A DNA stretch of 64,000 nucleotides, taken from NCBI GenBank assembly GCA_965219445.1, contig CBDCNQ010000005.1, forward strand, positions 480,001 through 544,000, in the 5' to 3' direction. The DNA is from Longimicrobiales bacterium. GTDB taxonomy: Bacteria > Gemmatimonadota > Gemmatimonadetes > Longimicrobiales > Gaopeijiaceae. Position 1 is the first letter of the stretch; each line of letters opens with the position of its first letter. The notes beneath the pieces were generated by a model, which saw nothing but the letters and a program-made list of their open reading frames with translations, ran no database searches and was not told the DNA's origin. This document shows, piece after piece, positions 14,282 through 54,509 of this stretch. The position numbers were made by a program, and so were the translations under genes.

Positions 14282-15061
14282 TCAGAGGCCCCCGAACTTC
14301 AGACCGCCGGTGAGCTCGATAGTTTCCCCGGTGAGGAACTCGCACTCGATTCCGAAGCGGATAGCGAGCCACACGTCGGATGCCTCACCCACCCTTCCAA
14401 GCGGAGTGCGTCGCGTCAACGCATTGATCGCTTCATGGGATATGGATTGGAGCATCGGAGTCCCTATCAGCCCGGGTGAGACCGTGAAGACCCTGATGCC
14501 GGCTCTTCCCAACTCAAGAGCCCATGAGCGACTGGCGGCCTCCAAGCCTGCCTTCGAAGCCGCATACGCCCCTTGCCCGAGGTTTCCGGCACGCGCTGCG
14601 GACGAGACATTTGCGATCACGCGATCACCGCTTTGCTCCGCGCTCAGCATGGCTCCGGCCGCCGCTCTGGCAATCAAGAACGCGCCCCGGAGGTTTGTTG
14701 CTATCACGCGGTCCCACAGGGCCACCGGTTGCTTCTTGGTCCACCCACCCATCGGCTCAGCAAGCACACCATCACCTAGCACCCCGATGGCATTAACGCA
14801 GCAGTTTATCGATCCCAGGCGATCCGAAGCCTCAGCCACGAAGCCCTCTACCTGCTCCTCATGCAGCACATCCATAACCTGGCAAAGTACCGGTGGGTTT
14901 GCGCCCATCGAGGCCTCAGTGCCTGCCAACCGCTCGTCTCGCCGGTCACTGAGAGCAGTCCGCGCACCCATGTGACCCATCTCTCGAGCGATCACACCGC
15001 CAATACCGCCGCCTGCTCCGAAAATCAGGGCTCTGCATTCCGAAATGACCATCCGTGCCAT
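14282..15061 (-). CDS. SDR oxidoreductase (FabG-like)
   Basis: GAGGGIG, VNAIG, NVSS, YAASK and PLGRVGE. Confidence 0.9.
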   Translation of the reverse strand: MARMVISECRALIFGAGGGIGGVIAREMGHMGARTALSDRRDERLAGTEASMGANPPVLCQVMDVLHEEQVEGFVAEASDRLGSINCCVNAIGVLGDGVLAEPMGGWTKKQPVALWDRVIATNLRGAFLIARAAAGAMLSAEQSGDRVIANVSSAARAGNLGQGAYAASKAGLEAASRSWALELGRAGIRVFTVSPGLIGTPMLQSISHEAINALTRRTPLGRVGEASDVWLAIRFGIECEFLTGETIELTGGLKFGGL

Positions 15062-15099
15062 CACCGTCCACGAGCAGTGCCAACTGGCGGCATATGAAT

Positions 15100-15471
15100 C
15101 TATATAGCAGGTCGGTCGAAGAAGGTACGCCGGCACCTGATCAGGCCGTCTTCAAACCGAAAGAAGTCTGCATACCGCTCTTTCAAAGCACTCCCGTCCC
15201 GATGCAGTCCTTCAAAGAGCCCCCAACATGCGACGGTATCCCGATCACTGAGTGCGCAGCGCACGGTGTGTCGCCCCCATCTTATTGGGCGCTCCTCCCG
15301 ATAAAACTGTAGGAGCTCCGTCCGCCCGACCATCCGAGGATAGCCCGGACGTTCATAGATTACATCGCGGTGGAAGATTCGCCCTAGTTCGCGCCAGTCA
15401 CAAGCATCAATCACCGCATACAACCCGATGATGTTCGCTTTATAGCCTTCACAACGAAGCGGTGACTCCAT
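15100..15471 (-). CDS. SnoaL-like / NTF2-family protein
   Basis: 123 aa with IFHRDVIYERPG and a DFFRFEDGLI...RTFFD C-terminus typical of the fold. Confidence 0.8.
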   Translation of the reverse strand: MESPLRCEGYKANIIGLYAVIDACDWRELGRIFHRDVIYERPGYPRMVGRTELLQFYREERPIRWGRHTVRCALSDRDTVACWGLFEGLHRDGSALKERYADFFRFEDGLIRCRRTFFDRPAI

Positions 15472-15527
15472 TCCGTGCTCCCCTGAACCCTCGCTGGGTT
15501 CTATACTACATCTTGACTACATCTCGC

Positions 15528-18500
15528 CTACGCCGAACCGCATTGTCTCGCCATCACGAGAACGGTCCGAAGTTCCTCGGCCACCGCACCCACAAAAGGC
15601 TCCTTCATGATTTCGTTGTGAATGCACGGGACCTGCCTGATAACGAGCGAACCGTCTATCAGGCGCTGCCAGTACGGGGCGGGCTCCTCACCCGTGGGCA
15701 GGGGTTCGTTCGAAGCGCGAAGGAACAACACATCCCCTCTGAAGCGCGTCGGTCTGTACTGCAGCCATGCGCTTCGATTCCGTTCGTACACTGCTAGTCG
15801 CTCAGCCCTGCTCTCGGGAGCCGACATACGGGCCAGTTCCGACCGGGCGACAGCAAGTTGCTCATCCGGTGACATGCCCTCCAGCTTGTCAAGGAAGCCG
15901 GAACCTGTCAAATCGCTCATAATAGCCATTATTGGTGCAACATGATTTATCTGCTCACCGACATAGCCTCGACAGTCAATGAGCGTCAAGGAGCCAACAA
16001 CCTTCTTTACTGCCTCCAACTGGAGAGCCATCTCATAGGCTATCACGCCGCCGAACGACCACCCAACAAGGTTCAGCGGATCAGCGAGGCCCCGAGTGCG
16101 AATCTCCTCCACGTAATCCCTGGCCATTACCTCGACCGTTCCATGTCGCGCGAAGCGCGGGCTTTCGCAAGACGTGGCACGTATACCGAAGACATTGAAA
16201 TCCTTAGCGAGCAACTTACTCAGCGCCTCATAGGAGAGTACGCCGGCCCCCACCGCATGAGGGCAGATCACACTCGCCATTCCGATCTTCTCTGTGGTCA
16301 GAGCGACAACGAGGGGCGGCTCACCCACGCTGACTGGCAGCGTGTCGCCGAGACCGCCTGCAAGTGCTCTTACTGTACCAGAGGAGTAGAATGCTTCCAG
16401 GGACGGACTGGCGCCCAGGCGTGCTTGGATCAGGTCGGACACTCGCATCGCCAGAAGCGAATGGCCACCGAGTTCGAAGAAGTTGTCATGGATCCCGATT
16501 TCCTCGACCCCGAGAACCTCGCTCCAGATCTCGGCGATCACCTTTTCGACCCGCGTCCGAGGCTCCACGTACTCGGCGAGTCCATCTCTTTGGTTCGTCG
16601 GCTCCGGTAGGCTGGCCCGGTCGATCTTGCCACTCGGGTTCAGTGGCAACTCGTCCAGTGCCACCAAATAGTTCGGCACCATGAACTCAGGAAGTCGATC
16701 GCGCAGATACCGACGCACTTCGCCCGTCCCATCCGCCCTTCCCTCCAACACCACATACCCAACCAGTTTTCGGTCCCCCTCCTCGTCCTCCTGCACTACC
16801 ACCACCGCGTCACGCACCCGCTCGTGACCCATCAGCACCGACTCGACCTCGCCCGGCTCGATCCGAAATCCTCGCACCTTCACCTGATCGTCGAACCGCC
16901 CCAGGAATTCCAACTGCCCATCTGAGCGCCACCGCACACGATCCCCCGTCACGTACAAACGCTCCCCCCTCTCGCCAAACGGGTTCGGCACGAACCGCTC
17001 CGCTGTCAGGCCTGCTCGACCCCAGTACCCCCGAGCTAAACCCGCACCTCCGATGTACAACTCGCCCGCCACACCCACCGCCACCAACTGCATCCCCCCG
17101 TCCAGCACGTACAACGTCCATCCCGGTAATGGACGGCCGATCGCGCTGTGTCTCGTTGCACTCTCCTTAACATCCAATCTCTTGAGCGTACTGTGGACAG
17201 TCGCTTCTGTGATCCCGTACATATTGCACAAGATCAGGTCGCTGTCCGCACGCTCCCGAAGCCAATCCTGAGTGCTCGTTACGTCCAGCGCTTCACCGCC
17301 CAGCACCACATATTTCACGCCACTTAGAAACGCCTCATCGCACTGACCATCGACGTTCCTGAGCTCCATGAACGCCGAAGGCGTTTGGTTGACGATAGTA
17401 ATTCCCTCGTCGCGAATAAACTCACCAAACGCTGTCGCCGACCTGCTTACCCAGAACGGCACAATGACCAGTCGAGATCCGTGAAGCAGCGCGCCCCATA
17501 TCTCCCACACGGAAAAGTCGAACGCATAGGAGTGGAATAGCGGCCAAGTATCCGATTCATCGAACCGAAAATGATGATCCGTGGCCCTGAAGAGCCCCGC
17601 CACTGCACCGTGCGGGATCAGAACACCTTTCGGGGTACCCGTGGAGCCGGAGGTGTAGATGATATAGGCCAGGTTCTCGGGATCGACCGGCACCTGCAGA
17701 TTCATCGTATCCGCGGTATCGAAGATCGGCTCCTCTCGATCGAGGTACACGACTTCCACGGCCAGTGACGGTACCCGGTCCACCAGACGCCGCTGCGTCA
17801 GTAATACCTCGACCTCACTGTCCTCCGCCATGAATGCCCGCCGCTTCGGCGGATAGTCAGGATCTAGTGGCACATACGCTCCGCCCGCCTTCAATGCCCC
17901 CAACATCCCCACTACCAACTCCATCCCACGCTCTACACACAGCCCTACCCGTACTTCCGGACCCACACCCAGCCGCCTCAGTTGATGCGCAACCTGATTC
18001 GCCCGCTCGTTCAGCTCTCTGTACGTATACCGCTCCCCCTCACACTCCACTGCAATCCCTTCCGGCGTTCGCTCCACCTGCCCTTCGAACAGCTCGTGAA
18101 CACTCGCCTCCGGATACGATACCCCCGTCTCGTTCCACTCCTCCAACAGCTGCCGACGCTCGTCTTCACCCAGCATCGCCATCTCATAAATCGGACACTC
18201 CACATCCTCCACCACACTCTCCAACAACCGCCCGTAATGTCCCATCATCCGCTCGATCGTCGCGCTATCGAACAGGTCCGTGCTGTACTCGAGCCAACCT
18301 CTTAGGCCCTGGGGATTGCGCACTACAAAGACTTGTAGATCGAACTTGGAAGACTTGTACGAAGTCGTCGTCCGTCGGAGATCTATGGCGCCGCCAAGCC
18401 GCCGAACCGAGTCACTCGCGATGGGCATCGAAAACATCACCTGGAAGACCGGATTGTACGCCGGACTCCGTTCGACGTTGAGCTCCTCCACCAGCTTCGC

Positions 18501-21500
18501 GAACGGCAGATCCTGATGCTCGTACGCCTCCAGCGTCGTCTCACGAATCCGTCGCAGCACCTCCCGGAAGCTCGGCTCCCCCGACAGATCCGTCCGCAGC
18601 GCTAGCGTGTTGACAAAACAGCCAATAATGGGGTCCAGCGTCGGCTCGATCCGGCCGGACGAGACCGAGCCTACAACGACATCTTCCTGTCCCGAATACC
18701 GAGCTATCAGAACCTTGAACGCCGCCAGCAACACCATGAACAGCGTCGCACCTTCTTCCCGACCCAGCCGCTCGAGTGGCTGGGCCAAGGTCGGATAATC
18801 GAAGTGTAGGAAGGTGCCTCGGTGACTCTGAACCGCCGGCCGGGCTCGATCCGTCGGCAACTCCAACAACTCCGGAGCCCCCGATAACTTCCCCTTCCAG
18901 TACGTCAGCTGCCTCGCTAGCTCCCCACCCTCCAACCACTCTCGCTGCCACATGGCGTAGTCCGCATACTGCACCGGTAGCTCAGGCAATGGTGACGTCG
19001 CCGAACCACCCCCGTACGCCTCGTACAGCACACTCAACTCCCGGAACAGTACATCCATGCTCCATCCATCACTCACAATGTGATGCATCGACAGAAGCAG
19101 GACATGCTCCGAATCGGACAACCTCAATAGCTCCGCCCGGAACAGTGGCCCTCGCTCCAGATCGAAGCCCCGCCCCGCCATCTCCTCCGCCCGCCGCCGA
19201 ATCTCCTCCTCCAACTCCGCCCCACCCAGACCCGTCAGATCCTCCCGCGGTAACTCCCACCCCCCAGCCTCTCCCACCACCTGCCAAGGCTCCCCGTCAA
19301 TCTCCACAAACGTCGTTCGCAACGACTCATGCCGACCGATCACCTCCCCAATCGCCCACTCTAACCCCCCAACATCCAACACCCCAGACAGACGAACTCC
19401 ATTATTGATGACGTATGTCGCCCGACCTCGCACGAGCCGCTCGAGGATGAACATCTGTCGCTGCGCATACGATGCAGGGGTGGGTCCTGCCTCGCGGAGT
19501 CTCGGAACCAACCGGGGCCGCGGACTAACCCGAGTCGTTCGCAACTTCCGTACAAGGGCCGCTATCGCACCGATGGTTCTCTTCTCGAAGACGGCCTGAA
19601 CCGGGAGCCCGACACCCAACGCGTCCCGGATCCGCCAAGCGAGACGGGTGGCAGTGAAGGACGTGCCTCCCACCGAAAAGAAGTCATCCGAAAGCGACAA
19701 GCTTGTCGCTCCGGTCACTTCCCGCACCAGCTCCACCAGGAGGCTCTCGATGAGCTCGTACCGTGCAGAGCTACGCTCCCAGTTGGCGTGCCTGAGCCGT
19801 TTCTCGACTTGCCAACCCAGTTCGCGGCGATCAACCTTCCCCGTTGTCGTGGTGGGAAGGCTGTCGACAATGATAATCCCATGAGGGATCATGAAGCTCG
19901 GCATGCGGTCTGTGAGCCACTCGCGCAAATCCCGCTCGTCGATCAAACCGGACGCCCTGGGAATGACAAATGCTATGGGCTCAACACCACGGCTCCCACC
20001 CACGTCGCTCACGACAGCGCAAGCTTTAATATCTGGGTGGGATGATATCATGCTCTCTACCTCTCCTAGTTCCACTCGGAATCCGCGGACCTTCACCTGA
20101 GCATCCACCCGTCCGTGAAACTCTAGCACACCCTTCGGCATCCATCGCACAAGGTCCCCAGTCCGGTAAAGTCGACCACCAGCTTCACCGAAGAGGTCGG
20201 GAACGAACCGTGCCGCTGTAAGGCCGGCGCGGCGCGCGTAGCCTCGGGCAACTGCGGCGCCCCCGACATAGAGCTCGCCCCGCACCCCCACCGGAACCGG
20301 TTGCATCCATTGATCCAACACAAAGCACTTTCTGTCACCGACAGGTTGCCCAATCGGGATCGAGAGCGGGAGAGTGTCGTTGCGGATTTCACCACCGATC
20401 AAGTGGCAGGTAGCGAACACGGTGCATTCGGACGGCCCATATCCGTTGATCACTATCATGTCCGGGTACTCGGTCATCAACGCGTGCACATGTAGTGGAG
20501 AGAGAGACTCCCCCCCCACCAAGATGAGTCGCAATGACCCTAGGATTTCCACCGCAGTGTCGACGATCTCGTTGAAGAGGGACGCAGTCAGCCAAAGATG
20601 TGTAACCGCACCTCTACGAAGGGCGTCGGCAAAATTCGGAAGACTGATTCCACCCTCAGCCGTAGGTGGCACTATTTCGACACGTCCACCACGGAGAAGC
20701 GGGGTCCAGACCTCCAACGTGAGCGCGTCCCAGGAAATCGCGGAATAGTGCGCCCATACCTCAGGAATCAGCTCAAGCGAGTCTGTGTGGAGATCGAAGT
20801 TCTCATGGATGAATCCCGGTATCGCACTATGGTGGACAAGGGTGCCTTTCGGGGTACCCGTGGAGCCGGAGGTGTAGATGATATAGGCCAGGTTCTCGGG
20901 ATCGACCGGCACCTGCAGATTCATCGTATCCGCAGTATCGAAGATCGGCTCCTCTCGATCGAGGTACACGACTTCCACGGCCAGTGACGGTACCCGGTCC
21001 ACCAGACGCCGCTGCGTCAGTAATACCTCGACCTCACTGTCCTCCGCCATGAATGCCAGCCGCTTCGGCGGATAATCAGGATCTAGTGGCACATACGCTC
21101 CGCCCGCCTTCAATGCCCCCAACATCCCCACTACCAACTCCATCCCACGCTCTACACACAGCCCTACCCGTACTTCCGGACCCACACCCAGCCGCCTCAG
21201 TTGATGCGCAACCTGATTCGCCCGCTCGTTCAGCTCTCTGTACGTATACCGCTCCCCCTCACACTCCACTGCAATCCCTTCCGGCGTTCGCTCCACCTGC
21301 CCTTCGAACAGCTCGTGAACACTCGCCTCCGGATACGATACCCCCGTCTCGTTCCACTCCTCCAACAGCTGCCGACGCTCGTCTTCACCCAGCATCGCCA
21401 TCTCATAAATCGGACACTCCACATCCTCCACCACACTCTCCAACAACCGCCCGTAATGTCCCATCATCCGCTCGATCGTCGCGCTATCGAACAGGTCCGT

Positions 21501-24500
21501 GCTGTATCCACAGCTGCCCACAACCGACCCGTCCTCCTTCTCCACAAGCATCGCAACCAGATCGAACTTGGCAGTGTGACTGTCTGTCGAAACCGACGTC
21601 GCCTCCAGTTCACCCAGCTTGAGCGCTCGCTTCTCCGGACTGCGGAGCGTGAACATCACCTGGAAGACCGGATGATGTGCCAGACTCCGTTCGACGTTGA
21701 GCTCCTCGACCAGCTTCTCGAACGGCAGATCCTGATGCTCGTACGCGTCTAGCGTCGTCTCACGAACCCGTCGCAGCACCTCCCGGAAGCTTGGCTCCCC
21801 CGATAGATCCGTCCGTAGCGCTAGCGTGTTCAGGAAGAACCCGATCAGTCCTTCGAATTCCTCTCGGCTACGGTTCGCGATCACAGTCCCGACGACGACA
21901 TCTTCCTGTCCCGAATACCGAGCCATCAGAACCTTGAACGCCGCCAGCAACACCATGAACAGCGTCGCACCTTCTTCCCGACCCAAAGCCCGCAAACCCT
22001 CCACCACCTCCGCTGGGATATCGAACCGCTCGCGCCCCCCTCGGTGACTCTGAACCGCCGGCCGGGCTCGATCCGTCGGCAACTCCAACAACTCCGGAGC
22101 CCCCGATAACTTCCCCTTCCAGTACGTCAGCTGCCTCGCTAGCTCCCCACCCTCCAACCACTCTCGCTGCCACATGGCGTAGTCCGCATACTGCACCGGT
22201 AGCTCAGGCAATGGTGACGTCGCCGAACCACCCCCGTACGCCTCGTACAGCACACTCAACTCCCGGAACAGTACATCCATGCTCCATCCATCACTCACAA
22301 TGTGATGCATCGACAGAAGCAGGACATGCTCCGAATCGGACAACCTCAATAGCTCCGCCCGGAACAGTGGCCCTCGCTCCAGATCGAAGCCCCACCCCGC
22401 CATCTCCTCCGCCCGCCGCCGAATCTCCTCCTCCAACTCCGCCCCACCCAGACCCGTCAGATCCTCCCGCGGTAACTCCCACCCCCCAGCCTCTCCCACC
22501 ACCTGCCAAGGCTCCCCGTCAATCTCCACAAACGTCGTTCGCAACGACTCATGCCGACCGATCACCTCCCCAATCGCCCACTCTAACCCCCCAACATCCA
22601 ACACCCCAGACAGACGAACTCCCTTCGACACGGTGTAAAACGCATCGCCAGGATACATACGATCCAAAAACCACAGCCGCTCCTGTGCGTGCGAAAGCCG
22701 GGACGGCTCGGGCCTTCTGACCCGAAGGTGGCGGTCGGGGAGGGCCTCATCGTCCCTAGAGTGCCTTCCTCCTTCTCGGATCGTAGCCGCGAGTGCCTCC
22801 AGCGTTGAAAAACGAAACACCACATCGAGCGTTAATCGAATGCCCATGTCCGACCGCACTTGTGCGACCAAGCGCATGGCGCTGAGCGACGTCCCTCCGA
22901 GGAGAAAGAAGTCATCAGTCCGCTTCACCGCCTGCAGGCCCAAAAGATCTCCCCAAACCTTCGCGAGATACGCCTCGAGGGGAGCCAACTCGGAACGATG
23001 GGCAACTTGGGGCCCGGAGGTGAGACCGAGTTCTCGGTCCGCCCACTCGACGAGAGCCTTGTAGTCGGTCTTGCCTCGCTCTGTCGTCGGCAGGCTCGGG
23101 AGCGCAAACACATGAGTGGGAACCATGTAACGGGGAATGAGGCGCACCGCCCAATCCGCCAGGTCAGTCGAAGCAAGATCGAGCGAGACGTCGATGGATT
23201 CGCGATCGCCTAAGCGTACGAAAGCGCAGAGTTGCGGTGACTCGCCACGCTCGCCGACCAAACAAACCCGGACCTCGCGTATCGCCGGGTGACGTTCCAG
23301 TACTCGCTCTACCTCGTCGAGCTCGACGCGAAATCCCCTCAGCTTGACCTGCCGATCACGCCTCCCCAGAAAATGGAGGTGGCCGTCCGGACCGATCGTG
23401 GCCAAATCACCCGTACGGTACATCCGGCTCCCCGGACCGTGCTCCGCGAACGGGTCAGGAAGGAAGCTCGCGGCCGTTGCAGCTGGTGCATTCACATAGC
23501 CCTGGGCGACACCGTGGCCACTCAGATACACCTCCCCCGCAATCCCTATTGCCGTCGGCTTCAGCTCTTCGTCAAGAACATATGCACTCGTGCCTCGGAT
23601 TGGACGCCCGATTGGTGGCGCTTCGCAACCCTTATCCACCTGCTCCATAGGCACTTCGAAGGCGGTGGAATAGGTCGTGTCCTCGGAGGGACCGTAGAGG
23701 TTGAACAACCGCCCCTCAAAGCCAGACCGCCTCAGGGCGATCGCAAGGGTACCGGAAAAAACCTCTCCACAAAGGCAGATCACGCGCAGAGTATCCGGTA
23801 GACCCACCGAGTCGAGTAGTGCTGCCGCTGCAGACGGCACGGTGTTGAGAAACGTAACGCGACCTAGGCTTGGTTCGGCGCCAATATCGAGTGCGTCTTC
23901 TTTCAAGAGAACGCAGCCGCCCATCGAAAGGGTGCCGAAAACCTCGAACACTGACAGGTCAAACGACACCGATGTCGTGGCCAACATCCCCTCAAAGTCG
24001 GCCGGCGAGAACGTGGCCCTGGTCCACTCGAGCAAGGCGGCGAGGCCGCGGTGCTCGATCCCGACACCCTTCGGTTTCCCGGTAGATCCCGACGTGTAGA
24101 CTACATACGCGAGGGCGTTGAGAGACGGCTCCCCCATCGTCGGATCGAAGGTTCCATCGCTCCCGGCAATGAGGCTCTCGAAAGCCCGCCATTCCTGCGG
24201 CTGTTCCTTGCCAAGTTCTTCGATGGTACGCGCTTCGGCTACGACAAGCCGAACAGAGGCGTCGCTCAGAATCGCCCGCACGCGGCTATCCGGCACCTCA
24301 GGTCCGATCGGCACATAACAGCGTTGTGCGGCCAGGCACCCGAGCAGACTCACGATCAACCGATGGTCCCGCGGCAGCAGTATTGCGACAAGGTCGTCCC
24401 GCGACACCCCGGCCGTCAGAACGCCATCGGCGAAGTCAACGGCCATTCCACGTAGCTCGGCGTAGGTAAGAACTCTCGCCCCCGCCTCGACCGCCGGACG

Positions 24501-25949
24501 ATACCCCCACATGCGCGCAGCGGAGTCGAAAGCGCTCCAGCCTGTCATGCCGATGGGCTCGTCCTCGATTACGGCGCCACTCAACCCGCCTTCGCGAAGA
24601 TTGGGTGCGTGAGAGTGCTGCTGCCGGAGCGCCGAGCGGTCGGGGGTTTCGGACATCTGCGTGAAGATCTCTGAAAGCTCTGCCAGAAATGACGCGATCA
24701 ATGCCTCGCCAAGGCACGCTTGGTGTTCGAACGTAACAGTTACTCGAGTACCTAACTCGCGGAAATACACGAAGAGCAACATCTTGGCGTCGGCCGGCTG
24801 CATTGCAGCCACGCGCATCCTGACATCGCCCAAGCCCCGTTGAGGACCGTCTTGCTCCGTCCCCGACTGCATGGCACACATCACCTGAAAGATGGGCGTC
24901 CGGGTCAGGTCCCGAACTCCGGGGAGCTCCTCGACCAGCTTCTCGAACGGCAGATCCTGATGCTCGTACGCGTCTAGCGTCGTCTCACGAACCCGTCGCA
25001 GCACCTCCCGGAAGCTTGGCTCCCCCGATAGATCCGTCCGTAGCGCTAGCGTGTTCAGGAAACTCCCGATCAATCCTTGAAGATCAGGGTGGTTACGGTT
25101 CGCGATCACAGTCCCGACGACGACATCTTCCTGTCCCGAATACCGAGCCATCAGAACCTTGAACGCCGCCAGCAACACCATGAACAGCGTCGCACCTTCT
25201 TCCCGACCCAAAGCCCGCAAACCCTCCATCACCTCCGCTGGGATATCGAACCGCTCGCGCCCCCCTCGGTGACTCTGAACCGCCGGCCGGGCTCGATCCG
25301 TCGGCAACTCCAACAACTCCGGAGCCCCCGATAACTTCCCCTTCCAGTACGTCAGCTGCCTCGCTAGCTCCCCACCCTCCAACCACTCTCGCTGCCACAT
25401 GGCGTAGTCCGCATACTGCACCGGTAGCTCAGGCAATGGTGACGTCGCCGAACCACCCCCGTACGCCTCGTACAGCACACTCAACTCCCGGAACAGTACA
25501 TCCATGCTCCATCCATCACTCACAATGTGATGCATCGACAGAAGCAGGACATGCTCCGAATCGGACAACCTCAATAGCTCCGCCCGGAACAGTGGCCCTC
25601 GCTCCAGATCGAAGCCCCGCCCCGCCATCTCCTCCGCCCGCCGCCGAATCTCCTCCTCCAACTCCGCCCCACCCAGACCCGTCAGATCCTCCCGCGGTAA
25701 CTCCCACCCCCCAGCCTCTCCCACCACCTGCCAAGGCTCCCCGTCAATCTCCACAAACGTCGTTCGCAACGACTCATGCCGACCGATCACCTCCCCAATC
25801 GCCCACTCTAACCCCCCAACATCCAACACCCCAGACAGCTCTATGACGCGGCCAGTGTTGTATCGATCGCTCTCCGGCACAATCTGGTGTAATAGCCAGA
25901 AGCGTCTCTGTGACCACGAGCAGGGAAAGCGGGTCTCTCGTGGCTTCAT
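15528..25949 (-). CDS. NRPS-4: C-A(Ala-like)-T-C-A(Val-like)-T-C-A(Thr)-T-TE
   Basis: Three HHIVSDG motifs, three YTSGSTG motifs, carrier sites GGTSL/GGTSF/GGHSL and TE GWSFGG. Hand-read codes DLFNCCLT, DALWLGGV and DFWNVGMV. Confidence 0.96.
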   Translation of the reverse strand: MKPRETRFPCSWSQRRFWLLHQIVPESDRYNTGRVIELSGVLDVGGLEWAIGEVIGRHESLRTTFVEIDGEPWQVVGEAGGWELPREDLTGLGGAELEEEIRRRAEEMAGRGFDLERGPLFRAELLRLSDSEHVLLLSMHHIVSDGWSMDVLFRELSVLYEAYGGGSATSPLPELPVQYADYAMWQREWLEGGELARQLTYWKGKLSGAPELLELPTDRARPAVQSHRGGRERFDIPAEVMEGLRALGREEGATLFMVLLAAFKVLMARYSGQEDVVVGTVIANRNHPDLQGLIGSFLNTLALRTDLSGEPSFREVLRRVRETTLDAYEHQDLPFEKLVEELPGVRDLTRTPIFQVMCAMQSGTEQDGPQRGLGDVRMRVAAMQPADAKMLLFVYFRELGTRVTVTFEHQACLGEALIASFLAELSEIFTQMSETPDRSALRQQHSHAPNLREGGLSGAVIEDEPIGMTGWSAFDSAARMWGYRPAVEAGARVLTYAELRGMAVDFADGVLTAGVSRDDLVAILLPRDHRLIVSLLGCLAAQRCYVPIGPEVPDSRVRAILSDASVRLVVAEARTIEELGKEQPQEWRAFESLIAGSDGTFDPTMGEPSLNALAYVVYTSGSTGKPKGVGIEHRGLAALLEWTRATFSPADFEGMLATTSVSFDLSVFEVFGTLSMGGCVLLKEDALDIGAEPSLGRVTFLNTVPSAAAALLDSVGLPDTLRVICLCGEVFSGTLAIALRRSGFEGRLFNLYGPSEDTTYSTAFEVPMEQVDKGCEAPPIGRPIRGTSAYVLDEELKPTAIGIAGEVYLSGHGVAQGYVNAPAATAASFLPDPFAEHGPGSRMYRTGDLATIGPDGHLHFLGRRDRQVKLRGFRVELDEVERVLERHPAIREVRVCLVGERGESPQLCAFVRLGDRESIDVSLDLASTDLADWAVRLIPRYMVPTHVFALPSLPTTERGKTDYKALVEWADRELGLTSGPQVAHRSELAPLEAYLAKVWGDLLGLQAVKRTDDFFLLGGTSLSAMRLVAQVRSDMGIRLTLDVVFRFSTLEALAATIREGGRHSRDDEALPDRHLRVRRPEPSRLSHAQERLWFLDRMYPGDAFYTVSKGVRLSGVLDVGGLEWAIGEVIGRHESLRTTFVEIDGEPWQVVGEAGGWELPREDLTGLGGAELEEEIRRRAEEMAGWGFDLERGPLFRAELLRLSDSEHVLLLSMHHIVSDGWSMDVLFRELSVLYEAYGGGSATSPLPELPVQYADYAMWQREWLEGGELARQLTYWKGKLSGAPELLELPTDRARPAVQSHRGGRERFDIPAEVVEGLRALGREEGATLFMVLLAAFKVLMARYSGQEDVVVGTVIANRSREEFEGLIGFFLNTLALRTDLSGEPSFREVLRRVRETTLDAYEHQDLPFEKLVEELNVERSLAHHPVFQVMFTLRSPEKRALKLGELEATSVSTDSHTAKFDLVAMLVEKEDGSVVGSCGYSTDLFDSATIERMMGHYGRLLESVVEDVECPIYEMAMLGEDERRQLLEEWNETGVSYPEASVHELFEGQVERTPEGIAVECEGERYTYRELNERANQVAHQLRRLGVGPEVRVGLCVERGMELVVGMLGALKAGGAYVPLDPDYPPKRLAFMAEDSEVEVLLTQRRLVDRVPSLAVEVVYLDREEPIFDTADTMNLQVPVDPENLAYIIYTSGSTGTPKGTLVHHSAIPGFIHENFDLHTDSLELIPEVWAHYSAISWDALTLEVWTPLLRGGRVEIVPPTAEGGISLPNFADALRRGAVTHLWLTASLFNEIVDTAVEILGSLRLILVGGESLSPLHVHALMTEYPDMIVINGYGPSECTVFATCHLIGGEIRNDTLPLSIPIGQPVGDRKCFVLDQWMQPVPVGVRGELYVGGAAVARGYARRAGLTAARFVPDLFGEAGGRLYRTGDLVRWMPKGVLEFHGRVDAQVKVRGFRVELGEVESMISSHPDIKACAVVSDVGGSRGVEPIAFVIPRASGLIDERDLREWLTDRMPSFMIPHGIIIVDSLPTTTTGKVDRRELGWQVEKRLRHANWERSSARYELIESLLVELVREVTGATSLSLSDDFFSVGGTSFTATRLAWRIRDALGVGLPVQAVFEKRTIGAIAALVRKLRTTRVSPRPRLVPRLREAGPTPASYAQRQMFILERLVRGRATYVINNGVRLSGVLDVGGLEWAIGEVIGRHESLRTTFVEIDGEPWQVVGEAGGWELPREDLTGLGGAELEEEIRRRAEEMAGRGFDLERGPLFRAELLRLSDSEHVLLLSMHHIVSDGWSMDVLFRELSVLYEAYGGGSATSPLPELPVQYADYAMWQREWLEGGELARQLTYWKGKLSGAPELLELPTDRARPAVQSHRGTFLHFDYPTLAQPLERLGREEGATLFMVLLAAFKVLIARYSGQEDVVVGSVSSGRIEPTLDPIIGCFVNTLALRTDLSGEPSFREVLRRIRETTLEAYEHQDLPFAKLVEELNVERSPAYNPVFQVMFSMPIASDSVRRLGGAIDLRRTTTSYKSSKFDLQVFVVRNPQGLRGWLEYSTDLFDSATIERMMGHYGRLLESVVEDVECPIYEMAMLGEDERRQLLEEWNETGVSYPEASVHELFEGQVERTPEGIAVECEGERYTYRELNERANQVAHQLRRLGVGPEVRVGLCVERGMELVVGMLGALKAGGAYVPLDPDYPPKRRAFMAEDSEVEVLLTQRRLVDRVPSLAVEVVYLDREEPIFDTADTMNLQVPVDPENLAYIIYTSGSTGTPKGVLIPHGAVAGLFRATDHHFRFDESDTWPLFHSYAFDFSVWEIWGALLHGSRLVIVPFWVSRSATAFGEFIRDEGITIVNQTPSAFMELRNVDGQCDEAFLSGVKYVVLGGEALDVTSTQDWLRERADSDLILCNMYGITEATVHSTLKRLDVKESATRHSAIGRPLPGWTLYVLDGGMQLVAVGVAGELYIGGAGLARGYWGRAGLTAERFVPNPFGERGERLYVTGDRVRWRSDGQLEFLGRFDDQVKVRGFRIEPGEVESVLMGHERVRDAVVVVQEDEEGDRKLVGYVVLEGRADGTGEVRRYLRDRLPEFMVPNYLVALDELPLNPSGKIDRASLPEPTNQRDGLAEYVEPRTRVEKVIAEIWSEVLGVEEIGIHDNFFELGGHSLLAMRVSDLIQARLGASPSLEAFYSSGTVRALAGGLGDTLPVSVGEPPLVVALTTEKIGMASVICPHAVGAGVLSYEALSKLLAKDFNVFGIRATSCESPRFARHGTVEVMARDYVEEIRTRGLADPLNLVGWSFGGVIAYEMALQLEAVKKVVGSLTLIDCRGYVGEQINHVAPIMAIMSDLTGSGFLDKLEGMSPDEQLAVARSELARMSAPESRAERLAVYERNRSAWLQYRPTRFRGDVLFLRASNEPLPTGEEPAPYWQRLIDGSLVIRQVPCIHNEIMKEPFVGAVAEELRTVLVMARQCGSA

Positions 25950-28164: not shown

Positions 28165-28194
28165 CGGTGCCCCCCTGACGTGGTCATGATTCGC

Positions 28195-47514: not shown

Positions 47515-48855
47515 TTGAAGCACTTACGGGTCCGCCCGCTCAAAGGACCAATCGGTGGAAGCATCGAAGTGCCCAGATCCAAACCGGAAACCCAGCGCGC
47601 CATCCTGGCCGCCTCTCTTGCGGAGGGCTCGTCGATCATCCATGGCGATCTAAGGTGTGAGGAGACTCTGGCCATGCGGACGGCGGTGTCGGCGCTTGGG
47701 GCTCATGTGAAGGTAGATCACGGTGCCCTGTGGGTAACAGGAACATCACGGCCGGCCGCGCCGGCATCAGTGATACATTGCGGTGGTTCTGCGCTGGTGT
47801 TTCGTACAATGCTTGCGCTTGCATCATATAGTGGGGCGCCGACCATTCTGAGTGGAGACCACACGCTCCGATTGCGGCCGATGGCACCACTTTTCAGTTC
47901 GCTAGGTGAACTAGGGGCGGTGGTGGAGGAAATCTCGGAAGCCGGATGCGCCCCGGCAGTCAATTGGGGCAGGGGGCTGCGCGGCGGACACGCGTATCTG
48001 CCACCCGACGTAAGCTCACAGTTCCTCACGGCGCTTTTGTTTGCCGCGCCGCTTGCCGAGCGTAGGCTCATTCTCTCCGTAGGACAGCCTTTGCGTTCAC
48101 GATCGTACGTTGATCAAACGATCGTTGCTCTAGCACGTGCTGGTATCACGGTCGAAGTGTCCTCCTCCAATAGTATCTACTGTGTCGAGCCGGGACCGTA
48201 CAGGCCTTTTGAGGTAGGAATCGGCGGCGATTTCACATCCGCGTCATACCTGATGCTGCTTGCATCCCTTTTCCCTGGCAGTTCTTTGACCTTGAGGGGG
48301 CTCGAGGAGGATAGCCTCCAGGGGGAGCGACTCATGCTGGACGCTTTGGAGGCAGTCGGCGCAAAAGTGGGTTTCAACCGAAAGGACGAATGCCAGATTG
48401 AGGTCTCCAATGAACTCCAAGGAGACCTGGAACTAGACCTGTCTAATGGGCCGAATGTGTTCCCGACACTCGCGGTATTGGGTGCCTTCATACCTGGCAC
48501 AACGGTGCTTGTCGGAGCGCGACTAACGAACGATCACAAGTGTCCGAGGATCACCGCGGTGGCGGAGGAGCTGAGGCGCTTCGGGGTCAAATTGTCGCTG
48601 ATCTACGATGGAAACAGCTTGGACGGGTTGCGGATTCAGGGTCGTCGAGACTACAAGGGAGACGCCATACTTGATAGCCACGGTGACCACAGATTGCTAA
48701 TGGCCTTGGCGGTTGCGTGTACTCGAATGTCGAGAGCTACGTCGGTGACGGGATCCACTCTGGTCGCTCAGTCCTACCCGAACTTCTATAGGCATCTCAC
48801 AAGACTGGGAGTGCAACTCGCCGATGAACCGTTGCTGACTCCACCGGCAAGCTAG
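47515..48855 (+). CDS. EPSP-synthase-like enolpyruvyl-transferase-fold protein with an altered active site
   Basis: PRSKPETQRA, LRLRPM, SSQFLTALL, SHGDHRLLMA and SYPNF present; KETDR replaced by HKCPR. Confidence 0.88.
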   Translation: MKHLRVRPLKGPIGGSIEVPRSKPETQRAILAASLAEGSSIIHGDLRCEETLAMRTAVSALGAHVKVDHGALWVTGTSRPAAPASVIHCGGSALVFRTMLALASYSGAPTILSGDHTLRLRPMAPLFSSLGELGAVVEEISEAGCAPAVNWGRGLRGGHAYLPPDVSSQFLTALLFAAPLAERRLILSVGQPLRSRSYVDQTIVALARAGITVEVSSSNSIYCVEPGPYRPFEVGIGGDFTSASYLMLLASLFPGSSLTLRGLEEDSLQGERLMLDALEAVGAKVGFNRKDECQIEVSNELQGDLELDLSNGPNVFPTLAVLGAFIPGTTVLVGARLTNDHKCPRITAVAEELRRFGVKLSLIYDGNSLDGLRIQGRRDYKGDAILDSHGDHRLLMALAVACTRMSRATSVTGSTLVAQSYPNFYRHLTRLGVQLADEPLLTPPAS

Positions 48856-49043: not shown

Positions 49044-49661
49044 ACTGCCAATCATCTGCGAAGGACTTGATCGACCCCGGCTGTATACTCAACCGACACG
49101 GATCCCCCGAGAATGTCAGCTTATCGAAGGGGATCCGCAATACCGAGGCCGCGAGCCTTTGAGTAGGCCTCCTTGAGAGTCCAAAGTACCGTGAATCGGT
49201 CCAGCCGGTGGCGCGGCCGGTAGCTTTACGAAATCGTCAAACTCGATGCTACGCAGCACTGTGCCAGCTAAAGCGTGTATGTCGGAGACCTGGCCTTTGG
49301 CTTGCACGTCGATCCCGCAATCGATTTCGGTGGTAACGACGCAGGCTACATGCCTGGCCGTGTGAGAGATATTGAATCTCATCCTAGGGGTCAGAACCGG
49401 ATGGGCGATCTCTGGACGCCCCGTGTGAAGTTCGTCGAAGCTCCATGACGAAACGGCACTCAGGGACAACATGTTGTCAGAGCGGCGCCGCGCGAGCGTG
49501 GGGCTGGGGCTCTAGGGCAGGCATGATCCGTCATCTTCGCAGGGAATCTCCCCGGGAACAGCGTACGAGGGATGTGTCCGGGAGCGAAGGCCAAGGGAAG
49601 TTGATGTTCGTCCCGCGACTCTGCGTCCGAAACCCGACCCGACCCGAGTGAGCCATGGCAT
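49044..49661 (-). pseudogene. Frameshifted Sfp-type PPTase remnant (copy 2)
   Basis: Same sequence as 4083-4700. Ends approximate. Confidence 0.75.
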
Positions 49662-49674
49662 GGGGACCCGAACT

Positions 49675-50619
49675 CTAGCAGGCCTTGAAATTGTATCCCC
49701 GTGTCGTCGCAGTCACCGAACGATTGTGGTGATAGTCGTCGCGACCACTCACCAGTACGACGCCGTACTTTTCGAGATTGACCCTGTCACCGAACTCCTC
49801 TAGGAACATCGTGTCCGGATAGACTGCTACGCATGGCGGGACGTACCGCGCTGCGAATCCGAGACGCATCATTCGTGTCTTCCCTGCATGAGGATGCGAC
49901 GCATGCATCAGTGTGGACCAGAACATCACCGCTTCCCCCGGGCGCATCACGATTGATACAGCCAGCGATTCATCAGGCATCCACTCAGGATCCAACTGCA
50001 ACTCACGGTAGTCATATCCAAAAAACCCCCTCCGGACTCCGCGCTTATCGATCATGTTTATGTCCTGCGGCGAGTAATGCATGCCCTTCGACTCGTCGTA
50101 GAACATCCGCTCATGCGTGCCGGGCACGAATTGGAGGCAACCCGTCTCCTCATTCGAGTCCGTGAACGCCGTCCATACAGTGATGGTCCCTCCGAATTTC
50201 TTGAGGTGTTCCGGCCAGACGATCTGAGGCTTGCCCGAAGCATTCGCAAACGTGTCTGCCTGGTGCCAGTCCGTACCTTCGTCGCCGGGATACTTGGCAA
50301 AGAACTCAGTGCGCCAGCAAACGATGTCCGGACCTAATGCGCCCTGCACCCGGCTGATAATCCCCGGGTGACAAACATGGTCCGCAAGTAGCTCACAGTC
50401 GAGATGGCGATCGTAGTTCATGATGGTACTCTTCGGCGAAGAGTGGTTCTGCCCCGAGTAAACCGCGAAAGTCCGATCGAGTAGCTCAATGCGCTGTCGC
50501 TGCCAGCGGGTCCGCATCTCCTCCGGCTCATAGAGCTTGAATGGCCCGAGATACCCCTGCTCCTGGAATCGCGCGTGATCCTCCGCAGTCAGTGCACCCA
50601 ACATGTCAGTGTCGCTCAT
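49675..50619 (-). CDS. syrB2: SyrB2/CmaB-type non-heme Fe(II)/2-oxoglutarate aliphatic halogenase
   Basis: [39 protein letters not shown] (HxA halogenase motif), [22 protein letters not shown] and TTRG closely follow Pseudomonas SyrB2 as I recall it. Confidence 0.93.
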
Positions 50620-50730: not shown

Positions 50731-51579
50731 CTAGTGGTACATGAACTGACCGCCGTTGACGTGAAGGGCCTGACCAGTGATGAAGGATCCGCCATCACCA
50801 GCGAGAAACACGCAGGCCATGGCGACGTCCTCGACGCGTCCGATTTTTTTCATCGGTATCTGCCGGAGACGTATCTGCAACCAGTCCCTTGGATACTGGC
50901 TCCAATCTCGCTCCGTGTCGATCGATCCCGGAGAGACTGTGTTGGCCGTTATGCCACAGGCTGCGAACTCGATCGAAATAGCCTTTGTGAGAGCGTGTAA
51001 CCCTGCCTTGGAGACGATGTTGTGCGCACGGGCCTCGATGTGCCCCGCAAAGCCGTCCTCACCGGCAATATGGATGATCCGTCCCCGCCTGGATTCTATC
51101 ATTCCGGGGAGGACAGCCCTAGCGAGGTAGAACGCCGCGTTGAGGTTGGTGTTAAGCGTGTCGTTCCAGTCCTTCAACGAAATCTCGAGAAACGGCTGAC
51201 GCCGCCGTTTCCCGACGTTCGAGACTGCAATGTCCACCCTTCCGAAACGGCGCTCCGCCGCATCAACCATCTTTAGGACTTGATCCGGGTCACCGACGTC
51301 GGCGAGATGTTTCACCGCCACGCCACCGTCTTCTCCGATCTTCCGCACGACTTGATCCAGCGCGGCCACGTCGCGGCGCCCGTTAACAACGATGTTCGCG
51401 CCAGCACGAGCCAGACCCAATGCTATCGCCCGACCAATGTTCCGACCAGCGCCAGTCACGATGGCAGTCCGTCCTGCCAGCTGCGGCCCTCCACCGTTGT
51501 CTCCAGGCGAATCTGTCAACCCGCTCCCTGTGGCAGTCACGCGCTTATAGCCTTCTCTGATATGACCCTCGAGGAACAT
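50731..51579 (-). CDS. SDR oxidoreductase
   Basis: TGAGRNIG, RFGRVD, VSPG and ITGQALHVNGG; the YxxxK motif appears as NIVSK. Confidence 0.88.
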   Translation of the reverse strand: MFLEGHIREGYKRVTATGSGLTDSPGDNGGGPQLAGRTAIVTGAGRNIGRAIALGLARAGANIVVNGRRDVAALDQVVRKIGEDGGVAVKHLADVGDPDQVLKMVDAAERRFGRVDIAVSNVGKRRRQPFLEISLKDWNDTLNTNLNAAFYLARAVLPGMIESRRGRIIHIAGEDGFAGHIEARAHNIVSKAGLHALTKAISIEFAACGITANTVSPGSIDTERDWSQYPRDWLQIRLRQIPMKKIGRVEDVAMACVFLAGDGGSFITGQALHVNGGQFMYH

Positions 51580-51609
51580 CGTGGTCGCGCGGAAAGATCC
51601 ATGGACGTC

Positions 51610-52953
51610 TCAGCAGCCGACCAACCGCGCATATTCCTTGATCGAGCCGACATCGAAGTTCTGCAGCGCGTCGAACAGCGACGCCGTGTTCCCTTGGCCC
51701 AGAACGGGCTCGACGAGTTGCTCGAACTTCGCCTTGACTTGCCTCCAGTTCATGGGGTTCTGAGGATCACCCGGCGCCACGGATTTGCCGGACTTCAGTG
51801 ACGTGTCATCGGCCAGGCGGACCTCGATCCAGGCGGAACTTCTATCACATGTGTCGTCTGTCAGCAGCTCTGTTCGCTGCACCAGAGCGCGGAGAGTCGG
51901 GTCCAGCACCTTTTCGTCTGAGAAGTCGGCCACGGTTCCTCGATGGCCGGTAAGGCCAAGTGCAGCGCAGTACGCGGCGGAAAATTTTCCTTCGAGGCCG
52001 GTCTCCGGCGCCATCTTACCCGCGATGCACCGTGTCACGGGGCTGATCCAGATCCGGATCCCAGATATTTCTCTCCCCTTCACTTGATTGGATAAGTCGA
52101 GCGCGGATTCAATCACTGGGTGGGTCAGTCTGCAACATGCGTACAGTTTAGGGGCGTTCTGCATCAGCTCCCAGTCTCCGTGGGGATTGAACACCTGAAC
52201 TGGTACGGACCTATCCTGCACCAGCGCGGTTACCAAAGGTCCTGCCGGCTCCAATACGTCGGCGGCGGCTACGAAGCCTTGCGCAGCAAGCTCAGCTGCG
52301 ATTACACCATTCATCGCTGCCTTGCCGGCATGTAGTGGCTTCGCCATGGTGCCGAAAGAGGCAACCAGACCGCCCGTCTGTGTTGCGGCCGCTCCTAGGG
52401 CGTTCCGAATGCCGTCTTCATCTAGGTTGAGTACGATGCCCGCGGCAGCCGCCGACGCAAGACATCCCAGCACTCCGGTCGAATGCAGACCTCGAATGTT
52501 CAGGGCGGGACCGAGGCCATTGCGGCCGAGCCTCGCACCGATCTCGAACCCTCCGATGAACGCAGAGAGGATGTCTCGTTCTTCGGCTCCCGTATGTAGC
52601 CCTAGAGCGAGCGCCACGCTCCACACGGGGTTGCTGAGATGCGCGGCAGAGCTGGCGTGCGTGTCGTCGTAGTCGAGAGAGTGGCCCATTGTTGCGTTCA
52701 CGAGCGCGGCCGCGACGGGAGCTACGCGTCCACCGCATAGGATTTGCGCCTCTCCGCTGGTACTCCAGCCGAGGGCGACCTGGCGGGCGAACTGCGCTGC
52801 TGGCTCCGCGTGCCCTCCGATCGCGACCCCGATGCTATCAGCGAGGCTCCGGCGCGCGACGTCAACAACCTCGGGAGGGAAGCTCATTTCCTTTACCGAA
52901 GCGACAAACCGACTCGCGACTTCGGTGCTCGTGGAACTTGAATTTGATTTCAC
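51610..52953 (-). CDS. MmgE/PrpD-family protein
   Basis: HSLDYDDTH, HLS, GTMAKPLHAG, KLYACCRLTH, GKFS and GDPQNPM. Start chosen at GTG 52953. Confidence 0.92.
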   Translation of the reverse strand: MKSNSSSTSTEVASRFVASVKEMSFPPEVVDVARRSLADSIGVAIGGHAEPAAQFARQVALGWSTSGEAQILCGGRVAPVAAALVNATMGHSLDYDDTHASSAAHLSNPVWSVALALGLHTGAEERDILSAFIGGFEIGARLGRNGLGPALNIRGLHSTGVLGCLASAAAAGIVLNLDEDGIRNALGAAATQTGGLVASFGTMAKPLHAGKAAMNGVIAAELAAQGFVAAADVLEPAGPLVTALVQDRSVPVQVFNPHGDWELMQNAPKLYACCRLTHPVIESALDLSNQVKGREISGIRIWISPVTRCIAGKMAPETGLEGKFSAAYCAALGLTGHRGTVADFSDEKVLDPTLRALVQRTELLTDDTCDRSSAWIEVRLADDTSLKSGKSVAPGDPQNPMNWRQVKAKFEQLVEPVLGQGNTASLFDALQNFDVGSIKEYARLVGC

Positions 52954-53375
52954 TGGTTTTCGGGGGCAGGACGTTTGTGAAGAGGCGAACGCCAGTTGCT
53001 GGCATCTGATAGGACACACGCCGACTGGTCCGCGCACCGATGGGAAACGCTGATCGTTCTGAGAATCGTCAACATTACATAGCTCAAGCGGCGTGCAAGT
53101 CCAGCCGGCGTTCGAGATCGCGAGTTGCCGCCGCAACTTCGCCTCCCATCATATCGAGAACCAATATCTTAGCAATATAGGGAGATGACCAATGTCGCTG
53201 ATAAGCTCAAGACCTTAGTCGAAAGCCACCACGAACAACGCAAAGACTGTGGGCAAATGGCGAATCGATAGCGCGCGCACCGAGTCCCTTGTGCCCCGAT
53301 GTAATCAAGCCTAAGATCCGGCTTACTACAAGGTAGTACTGAAGGTCGAAGGCCGCTGGGAAGGGAGATCGAAGC

Positions 53376-54509
53376 ATGATCCGTATCGTGGATAGCACGC
53401 TTCGGGAGGGCTGTCAGTCGGCCGCGGGTCGCTTCACCATCGAGCAAAGCCAGGAGATCGCGCGGCTCTTGCGAGCCGCCGGGGTCGACATGATCGAGTG
53501 TGGTCACGCGAGCATCGATGCGGAAGAGCTGCGGAGAATTGCCGCAGTGACAGAAGTCGTCGGGAACGTGCCAGTCCTCTCACACGCGCGTGCCTGTCCC
53601 TTGGATGTTGATCGTGCAGCAGAGAGCGGGGCCTCTTGGGTGGGGATTTTTCTCGGCTGCAACAGCCTCACCCGGAAGGCTCGGCTGCCAGGAAGAAGCC
53701 GAAGAGAACTCCTGAGGATGGCGCGGGAGAGCGTGTCTCGGGCACGCCGCCGTGGTCTTCAAATACGCTTTACTGTGGAAGACGCGAGTCGGACACCTCT
53801 TGACCTGATGCTAGATCAGTTTCGGGTAGCACTTGAGTCCGGGGCGGATCGCCTTTGCATTGCGGATACAATCGGCCTGTTGGAGCCGCCATTGACTAGC
53901 AAAGTTGTTTGCGAGTTCCGCGAGAGGTTCCCGGAGGTCCCCTTGGAAGTGCACATGCACGACGACCGTGGGTTAGCATTGGCGAACGTTCTTGCGGCGG
54001 TAGACGCCGGAGCCACATGGGTTTCCACCTCTGTGAACGGTCTGGGCGAACGTGCGGGCATCACTGATCTCGCAGCCCTTGAGCTTAACCTTCACGTCCG
54101 GGGGGACCGACTGCTCACCTGTGGGGAGTCCCTTCAAGAGCTGAGCCGGCGTGTCGGTGCTTACTCGCGGTCCAGGCCGGATTTCCGCCGGCCGGTAGTT
54201 GGTCGGGATGCGTTCACACACGCCAGTCGCCTTCATCGGCTTGCAATGCAACGGGACACTTCAGCATACGAGCTGGTGGACCCCGCGATCGTGGGCAGGT
54301 CTCGCATAATTGAGCTGCCGGAGTCTCGTTCGGAGGAGGCAGTGACGGCGCGGCCTTCAACCAACGGCACGTCTCGGTCGGTGAGTTCGCCACCGCGGGA
54401 ACAGCACTCGAGATTCGGATCGAAGAAGCCTTCTCGCGTAGTCGGAGACGGTGAAGACCGGGCGCGGTCGCCCGGCGATGTGAAGCAAAGGCCGATGCCG
54501 TCCTTTTAA
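53376..54509 (+). CDS. Homocitrate/isopropylmalate-synthase-like DRE-TIM enzyme
   Basis: DSTLREG, EDASR, ADTIG, HMHDDRGLALAN and NGLGERAG; no recognisable LeuA regulatory domain. Confidence 0.9.
   Translation: MIRIVDSTLREGCQSAAGRFTIEQSQEIARLLRAAGVDMIECGHASIDAEELRRIAAVTEVVGNVPVLSHARACPLDVDRAAESGASWVGIFLGCNSLTRKARLPGRSRRELLRMARESVSRARRRGLQIRFTVEDASRTPLDLMLDQFRVALESGADRLCIADTIGLLEPPLTSKVVCEFRERFPEVPLEVHMHDDRGLALANVLAAVDAGATWVSTSVNGLGERAGITDLAALELNLHVRGDRLLTCGESLQELSRRVGAYSRSRPDFRRPVVGRDAFTHASRLHRLAMQRDTSAYELVDPAIVGRSRIIELPESRSEEAVTARPSTNGTSRSVSSPPREQHSRFGSKKPSRVVGDGEDRARSPGDVKQRPMPSF

Follow-up and report, generated by a model that had tools for sequence, protein, structure and literature searches.

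The 64,000-nucleotide window analysed here (positions 480001-544000 of contig CBDCNQ010000005.1, from a Longimicrobiales genome of 4.56 Mb in 5 contigs, 91.8% complete) carries on its minus strand a nonribosomal peptide synthetase (NRPS) operon with two small enzyme genes, here called the cassette, set between its modules. Positions below are those of the window. The operon opens with an MbtH-like gene (42077..42319; PF03621, E 1e-18), directly upstream of which lie fragments of IS3 and IS21 insertion sequences (IS). Gene A (37524..41624) encodes a half condensation (C) domain, adenylation (A) and thiolation (T) domains A1 and T1, and a full C domain, gene B (34735..37527) a half C, A2 with a proline code and T2, and gene C (28195..34722) C-A3-T-C-A4-T, where A3 has a threonine code and A4 probably a cysteate code. 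The cassette comes directly after module 4: a CysM-like pyridoxal-phosphate (PLP) beta-replacement enzyme of a distinct subfamily, a candidate cysteate synthase (27226..28164; PALP), and an apgM-like enzyme of the alkaline-phosphatase fold, a candidate O-phosphoserine supplier (25946..27229; apgM/PhosphMutase). Gene D (15528..25949) follows with C-A5-T-C-A6-T-C-A7-T and a thioesterase (TE), its codes being Ala-like, Val-like and Thr. The last two genes, all on the same strand, encode a SnoaL/NTF2-like protein (15100..15471; SnoaL_2) and, by family match, a FabG-like short-chain dehydrogenase/reductase (SDR; 14282..15136). Overlaps of 4 nt join genes A and B, the two cassette genes, and the apgM-like gene and gene D.

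The four NRPS genes, assigned from their domains and script-read codes, encode seven A, seven T, six full C and two half C domains and one TE. All six full C domains carry HHIVSDG, and the TE has the motif GWSFG, so that collinear A-T modules, one fewer active-motif C domain than modules and a terminal TE make up a linear NRPS. No extra C-like (epimerisation, E) or methyltransferase domain was found in these genes. Domain searches thus bore out the MbtH protein, seven modules, TE and lack of E domains given in a preliminary description of this DNA, and matched every tailoring family on its list (PALP, apgM/PhosphMutase, SnoaL_2, two SDRs, EPSP_synthase, TIGR01762, MmgE/PrpD and HMGL-like). Also supported is its view that this is an orphan cluster of seven modules for an all-L peptide that contains non-proteinogenic residues: we found no full-length relative, the apgM profile matching none of 150 genomes of the family and C-domain searches none of 11 genomes of the genus.

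Our script-read codes agree with the earlier hand-read series, X-Pro-like-Thr-Asx-like-Ala-like-Val-like-Thr, and give X-Pro-Thr-acidic-Ala-Val-Thr. A2 reads DVQFVAHVVK, A3 and A7 share DFWNVGMVHK, A5 reads DLFNCCLTYK and A6 DALWLGGVFK. The codes of A2, A3/A7 and A5 differ in one or two letters from those that discodermin synthetase has for Pro, Thr and Ala (A2 is one position off the Pro domain DscA_A3); between A6 and the discodermin Val code there are three differences. In a quick tree of A domains (99 distinct rows of 102) A3 fell among Thr-type codes, A5 among Ala-type and A6 among Val-type ones. The first domain, A1 (DAAKLGLVNK), has the scaffold of the Phe/Tyr clade (about 50% identity), with a Lys at the pocket base and a pocket code that occurred in 0 of 119 homologs.

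Module 4 is the point at which the operon acquires its particular interest. The A4 code, DSSKVGHVAK, matches that of DscC_A8 (DSTKIGHVGK), the domain for cysteic acid in discodermin, at seven of ten positions, including the Ser at the second. Its six best BLAST matches are all of the DATK type, and it falls in an acidic clade (SH-aLRT 98). The acidic residue, whose nature the preliminary description had missed, is most probably cysteate made by the PLP and apgM-like pair. For the product as a whole we lean, with modest confidence, towards an all-L heptapeptide X-Pro-Thr-Cya-Ala-Val-Thr (Cya, cysteate), the cassette supplying L-cysteate to module 4.

Both cassette enzymes retain their active-site residues. 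In an 85-row alignment of the PLP enzyme, Lys44 and the columns of a signature peculiar to its subfamily are invariant. Its nearest solved relative is CysM, to which its model (pLDDT 93) aligns with a TM of 0.83; it therefore has both the PLP lysine and the fold-type II structure of CapA-type cysteate synthases. In the apgM-like enzyme D10, S55, D295, H299 and H341 are invariant across the alignment and D340 and H360 nearly so, and it has an archaeal-type phosphoglycerate mutase fold. Fold and atlas searches gave no answer finer than the level of the family.

The cassette is widely distributed. Searching with the apgM-like protein alone retrieved no loci; searching with an alignment of 14 such proteins retrieved 111, each 1-21 kb long and, where named, mostly from Acidobacteriota and Longimicrobiaceae. 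An A domain is present in 53 of them and a PLP-enzyme match in 77: 62 have a close partner (at least 40% identity), 15 a distant one (about 30%, Dab-type), and 34 none. Three of the 111 also hold relatives, at 45-48% identity, of the SDR that ends our operon. The commonest code family, DATK[LM]GH[VC]GK, accounts for 18 of 94 A domains. A domains of the broader D[AGS]xKxGH type occur in 18 of the 32 close-partner loci with a readable A domain, in 0 of 10 distant-partner loci and in 1 of 6 partnerless ones. The gene order of the window recurs in 47 loci. Fourteen of these have an A domain 2.1-2.9 kb upstream, and 12 of the 14 read DATK[LM]GH[VC]GK; for A4 itself the distance is 2366 bp. An Ala module comes next in L021 and L064, as it does in the window. 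Module 4 and the cassette look like a plug-in unit whose parts move together.

The genes around the close-partner cassettes are suggestive, though no more than that, of a sulfonate. Where the cassette is found away from its usual setting, a sulfate adenylyltransferase/APS (adenosine phosphosulfate) kinase, a PLP decarboxylase and a TauD-like gene each occur beside 3 of the 62, and beside 0 of the 49 other loci. Two operons (L033:4238-15202 and L037:2766-17875) combine the cassette with MbtH, PLP decarboxylase, sulfate adenylyltransferase/APS kinase and LutABC-like genes, that of L037 adding a standalone C domain and a glycosyltransferase; they are candidates for a taurine- or cysteate-amide pathway. 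At L090, L091 and L111 the cassette lies inside a surface-polysaccharide cluster (NeuB, WbqC, flippase) along with TauD-like and amidotransferase-domain genes, where it may serve sulfonate decoration of a glycan.

Other partners of the same apgM subfamily bear on the first step. It accompanies a set of PALP, ATP-grasp and argininosuccinate-lyase genes (DabABC-like) in 13 of the 15 Dab-type loci (for example L034:5186-11323), two such loci having a DMGS-type A domain just downstream, and a threonine-aldolase-like gene in 6 of the 111 loci. Both kinds of partner act on phosphorylated Ser or Thr, as would be expected if the apgM-like enzymes transfer phosphate to the amino acid.

We propose that the apgM-like enzyme would move phosphate onto serine, and that the CysM-like enzyme would swap the phosphate of the resulting phosphoserine for sulfite to give L-cysteate. 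A4 would load the cysteate, and the TE would probably close a lactone on Thr3. The sulfite could come from sulfate adenylyltransferase/APS kinase and a PAPS-reductase-family gene of the host, whose genome has both sulfate-activation and PAPS-reductase-family genes. The island would then hold one NRPS operon, made up of MbtH, a deleted starter gene, modules 1-4, the two-gene cassette, modules 5-7 and the TE.

Several observations weigh against this scheme. With NF053679, the model for CapA cysteate synthases, the PLP enzyme reached 128.7 bits where the cut-off is 600. A4 belongs neither to the DATK group nor to the Asp-type DLTK group of the quick tree, which for this reason cannot tell cysteate from Asp, and the reading of DATK-type codes as cysteate codes is itself presumptive. 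The cassette loci are related, their DATK rows forming about nine lineages in the tree, and their counts are not independent. No A domain was recovered upstream in 33 of the 47 same-order loci, which are short contigs or non-NRPS contexts, and sulfur-gene neighbours at 3 of 62 are too few for significance. A canonical SerC scores over the cut-off in 9 of 15 cassette-bearing genomes, which do not need a second source of phosphoserine. No SerC was found in the present genome, and none over the cut-off in 24 relatives; given those 9 genomes, we do not count this absence as support for the cassette as a phosphoserine source.

The same cluster might incorporate a different acidic residue. The cassette could make another anionic beta-substituted alanine such as S-sulfocysteine, or A4 could load O-phosphoserine or Asp. 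CysM makes S-sulfocysteine from thiosulfate, and the nearest solved relatives of the PLP enzyme are CysM enzymes, so thiosulfate is a plausible alternative nucleophile and a further difficulty for cysteate. The position of A4 basal to both acidic groups, and its several departures from the DATK code, also allow for another substrate. We nevertheless consider this rather unlikely. The A4 code matches that of a module carrying cysteic acid, Asp-type DLTK domains exist separately from the cassette-linked DATK domain in the same loci (L021 and L056), and the decarboxylase and sulfate-activation neighbours suit a sulfonate.

The preliminary description had proposed a halogenated product, possibly a Thr-linked macrolactone containing 4-chlorothreonine. 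The halogenase lies in a block of genes beyond the MbtH end of the operon. This block comprises an AroA-fold protein (47515..48855, plus strand) whose link to the NRPS is unproven, a phosphopantetheinyl transferase (PPTase) gene (49116..49472, minus strand) found by sequence comparison to be frameshifted, an intact SyrB2-type Fe/2-oxoglutarate halogenase (49675..50619, minus strand; TIGR01762) for which no carrier partner was found, an SDR by family match (50731..51579, minus strand), an MmgE/PrpD-family protein (51610..53136, minus strand; MmgE/PrpD) and a homocitrate/alkylmalate-synthase-like (HCS-like) enzyme (53376..54509, plus strand; HMGL-like). The halogenase scores 429.5 bits against TIGR01762 (cut-off 226.3), matches the SyrB2 structure at E 9e-130 and keeps the His-X-Ala motif and the distal His; searches of 40 relatives and of 400 genomes of the phylum did not find it. 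It is 63-65% identical to two halogenases linked to Thr carriers, and both close relatives inspected (L122 and L131/L132) are directly preceded by a Thr-code A-T carrier and followed by a SyrC-like hydrolase. L131/L132 (G525:C47), from an Acidobacteriota genome, is a separate polyketide synthase (PKS)-NRPS cluster with the complete triad of Thr A-T carrier, halogenase and SyrC-like enzyme.

If block and operon formed a single pathway, the halogenase would chlorinate Thr on T3 or T7 or the residue on T1, and the HCS, PrpD and SDR genes would make residue 1 by keto-acid chain extension. The intact halogenase and its Thr-linked relatives fit such a pathway, the Lys at the base of the A1 pocket would suit an acidic side chain, and a deleted A gene in the operon starts like Thr carriers. 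The block also shares a low third-position GC content (GC3) with the cluster, 0.62-0.69 against 0.76 in the host, and so belongs to the same island. The partners of chlorination are missing, however. A genome-wide tblastn search for a standalone Thr A-T carrier gave only NRPS modules and distant matches at the level of acyl-CoA ligases. No SyrC/CmaE aminoacyltransferase is present in the window, the sole match in the genome (91.8% complete) being 25% identical and about 890 kb away, and no module lacks an A domain, all seven carrying their own. The block is transcribed in three directions behind 5 kb of IS, with its PPTase broken, and queries with its AroA, halogenase, PrpD, HCS and PPTase genes, and with SnoaL, matched none of the 111 cassette loci within their 1-21 kb. 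The one cassette genome that does contain such a halogenase has it on another contig, beside its own carrier. Chlorination by this route therefore seems improbable, 4-chlorothreonine is not supported and there is little to argue for a new halogenated peptide. Although the block is on the same island, nothing ties it to these seven modules; it is probably a partnerless remnant that does not chlorinate this peptide today, and the peptide is most likely sulfonated rather than chlorinated.

At 304.4 bits against TIGR01356 (cut-off 287.25) the AroA-fold protein would be annotated as aroA. It has Asn in place of Asp313, and His-Lys in place of Lys-Glu at the Glu341 site, which we take to be the catalytic residues of EPSP (5-enolpyruvylshikimate 3-phosphate) synthase in E. 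coli numbering. These substitutions are common to 11 and 9 of its 13 closest relatives, whereas 124 and 121 of 130 distant ones are canonical. As both catalytic acids are lost we rejected a role as a self-resistance or flux-boosting EPSP synthase; the host has a separate aroA of its own. The subfamily has its own motifs and recurs at L118:14998-16344 and L119:11980-13368. Its Burkholderia members lie in small ATP-grasp/dioxygenase biosynthetic clusters, and the best plasmid matches of the HCS-like enzyme (45-47%) also sit in small biosynthetic clusters.

The operon is itself a mosaic. The flanks of A1, A2 and A3/A7 are 93-100% identical around pocket subdomains that share 27-28%, A3 and A7 are identical in the specificity subdomain as well, A6 shares only the N-terminal flank, and the C-domain cores are homogenised across the cluster (15528-41624). 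It is a clean natural case of specificity-subdomain swapping and should be useful for NRPS engineering. Of the 23,852 NRPS bases, 14,348 (60%) fall within repeats that are 95% or more identical, the longest measuring 1968 bp, module 7 A-T being a 99.5% copy of module 3 A-T. The order of the modules therefore rests on the assembly, and an artefact in their number or order must be weighed. Contigs from four public runs of one study match the unique stretches 25809-30295 (cassette and A4) and 41545-43230 letter for letter; none of them spans the repeats. Two loose ends lead outside the assembly and count against the seven-module sequence: one in the T-C linker (31424/39007) in all four runs, the other at 24793 in three of the four listed. 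They may represent a sister variant of the cluster, extra modules missing from the assembly, or an insertion. The read depth of run X1 argues for the assembly, the repeats standing at 18.9 and 26.3 and unique sequence at 4.6, about 4-6 times and in the ratios predicted by four A-T and five C copies. Since all frames also stay open and there are six different specificity subdomains, we regard an artefact as very improbable.

The DNA around the operon has decayed extensively. Between MbtH and gene A lies the remnant of an A-domain gene (41750..41948, minus strand), in which an N-terminal and a late C-terminal motif remain in different frames, 95 bases apart, with the middle deleted. The two motifs score 23.1 and 18.7 bits and jointly 34.5; among 1500 random genome windows the highest joint score was 3.0. 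A third A-domain motif was not matched by the scan. The letters are identical in the public contigs. The remnant begins like standalone A-T proteins and is too short to type; it is a probable lost starter A(-T) gene that probably capped the N-terminus. A lost cap is argued for by the behaviour of uncapped X-Pro thioesters, which tend to cyclise to diketopiperazines, as in gramicidin S synthetase. The half C domain of gene B follows a gene ending in a full C; by analogy, gene A, which also starts with a half C, could formerly have been preceded by a partner gene. Such half-C N-termini are not in themselves damage, since 10 of the homologous NRPS proteins screened have them too. A1-T1 is intact, yet it is preceded by the deleted gene, and with the starter lost the present-day output is uncertain.

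Further relics flank the operon. A plus-strand NRPS fragment, C-A-T-C with another type of C domain (54785..59563), begins within a T-C linker and is truncated by an IS fragment, has an A domain without the amine-binding Asp and shows host-like codon use; it lies just outside the region that the preliminary description delimited. An inverted duplicate of the halogenase and broken PPTase (1304..4749, plus strand) is interrupted by two IS. The duplication (1259-4749, 1.7 kb) is 99.9% identical, starts at the SDR stop with a short fold-back and contains an IS256-type element of which the copy at 45700-47064 is 100% identical. Of the PPTase reported in the block, then, the gene is present but frameshifted; an intact one of the Sfp/HetI type lies at 2..982 (plus strand, by family match), outside the reported cluster. 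The statement that the core genes are intact likewise stands for modules 1-7, the TE and the cassette, and fails for the starter gene, the block's PPTase and the eighth NRPS gene, which is a relic.

All this would suit a cluster that is silent and decaying, through loss of the starter and the IS upstream of MbtH, or one that loses X-Pro as a diketopiperazine. The broken PPTase, broken halogenase copy and relic NRPS are in keeping with it, and a simple scan showed no promoter-like site between the IS and MbtH, promoter and terminator scans being at chance level. Against it, about 27 kb of NRPS and cassette DNA has no stop or frameshift. Every A, T, C and TE motif checked is present, the half-C N-termini have their counterparts in homologs, and an intact PPTase is nearby. 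Silence is possible, though doubtful, and would be compatible with the cysteate heptapeptide.

The whole region, crowded with IS, is an acquired island. Cluster genes have a GC3 of 0.58-0.72, long host open reading frames (ORFs) 0.76, and all 10 condensation-domain matches of the genome fall inside the window. ORFs in the 40 kb upstream (L001 and L003), called by eye from their starts as integrase-, relaxase- and conjugation-like, may belong to an integrative element next to the island. Within the same order one genus is very rich in NRPS, with 44-101 condensation-domain candidates per genome (G027, G031, G033, G037 and G039); the cassette was not found in these five genomes at E<=1e-60.

The NRPS is a true orphan, and the novelty that can best be defended is a widespread module-plus-cassette unit, probably for cysteate. 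A much broader proposal can be entertained only tentatively, and as a whole: that the two enzymes form a route, not described before, by which serine becomes L-cysteate, moving with a dedicated module between NRPS clusters and marking a widespread, uncharacterised class of sulfonated peptides in Acidobacteriota and Gemmatimonadota; that apgM-like enzymes are general phosphotransferases feeding PLP beta-replacement enzymes; and that the product starts with an unprecedented acidic residue from the AroA-fold/HCS/PrpD block, possibly chlorinated on T1. Some peptides of marine origin and of actinomycetes contain cysteic acid, and the residue can be important for their activity. A candidate supply route for it can now be named, consisting of two small enzymes and one A domain, and the cassette serves as a marker for mining sulfonated-peptide clusters, 62 loci having already been found.

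SbnA, DabA, mycobacterial CysM and CapA are phosphoserine-dependent beta-replacement enzymes. The PLP enzyme shares with them fold-type II, the catalytic Lys and an expected phosphorylated amino-acid substrate. It differs in falling below every model cut-off (for the SbnA family 157 bits against 349.95), in its own invariant signature and in being paired with an apgM-like enzyme; neither SbnB nor ATP-grasp and argininosuccinate-lyase partners were among the window ORFs scanned. The syringomycin system SyrB1/SyrB2/SyrC makes 4-chlorothreonine, and shares with the present island a halogenase of the same family and a C-terminal Thr module; its Thr A-T carrier, SyrC and A-less last module were all three not found here. 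The relic NRPS fragment has its best NCBIfam score with SolG of solanimycin (PMC10204066), to whose C-domain type it is related. At 1755.5 bits, below the cut-off of 2200, we rejected membership; the relic is cut at both ends, and no PKS or other sol gene was seen in the window.

A search of the open literature, which did not extend to MIBiG or the primary actinomycete cysteate papers, found no published description of this gene combination or of the cassette, and the accessible text of PMC7160387 and PMC11193023 holds nothing on the cassette enzymes. Imacidin, whose cysteate congeners are the most active (10.1101/2025.10.02.680127), and cysteoamide and JBIR-95 (PMC13260306) are actinomycete cysteate peptides. 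As far as the available parts of these sources go, they resemble the present system in being Thr-containing lactones from NRPSs with cluster-encoded cysteate biosynthesis, and differ in their sequences, acyl caps and D-residues. The closest parallel is the discodermin NRPS (dsc) of the uncultured marine producer 'Ca. Entotheonella monilis' (PMC12858407). According to the accessible text, its 14 modules come with a formyltransferase and with E and methyltransferase domains, unlike the seven all-L modules here, and module 8 carries cysteic acid. Both systems thus use a module with an Asp-like code, DSTKIGHVGK there and DSSKVGHVAK here. In that sponge-symbiont pathway the origin of the cysteic acid is described as unclear, no cysteate genes having been reported in the same text, whereas the operon described here has a candidate supply cassette in its midst.

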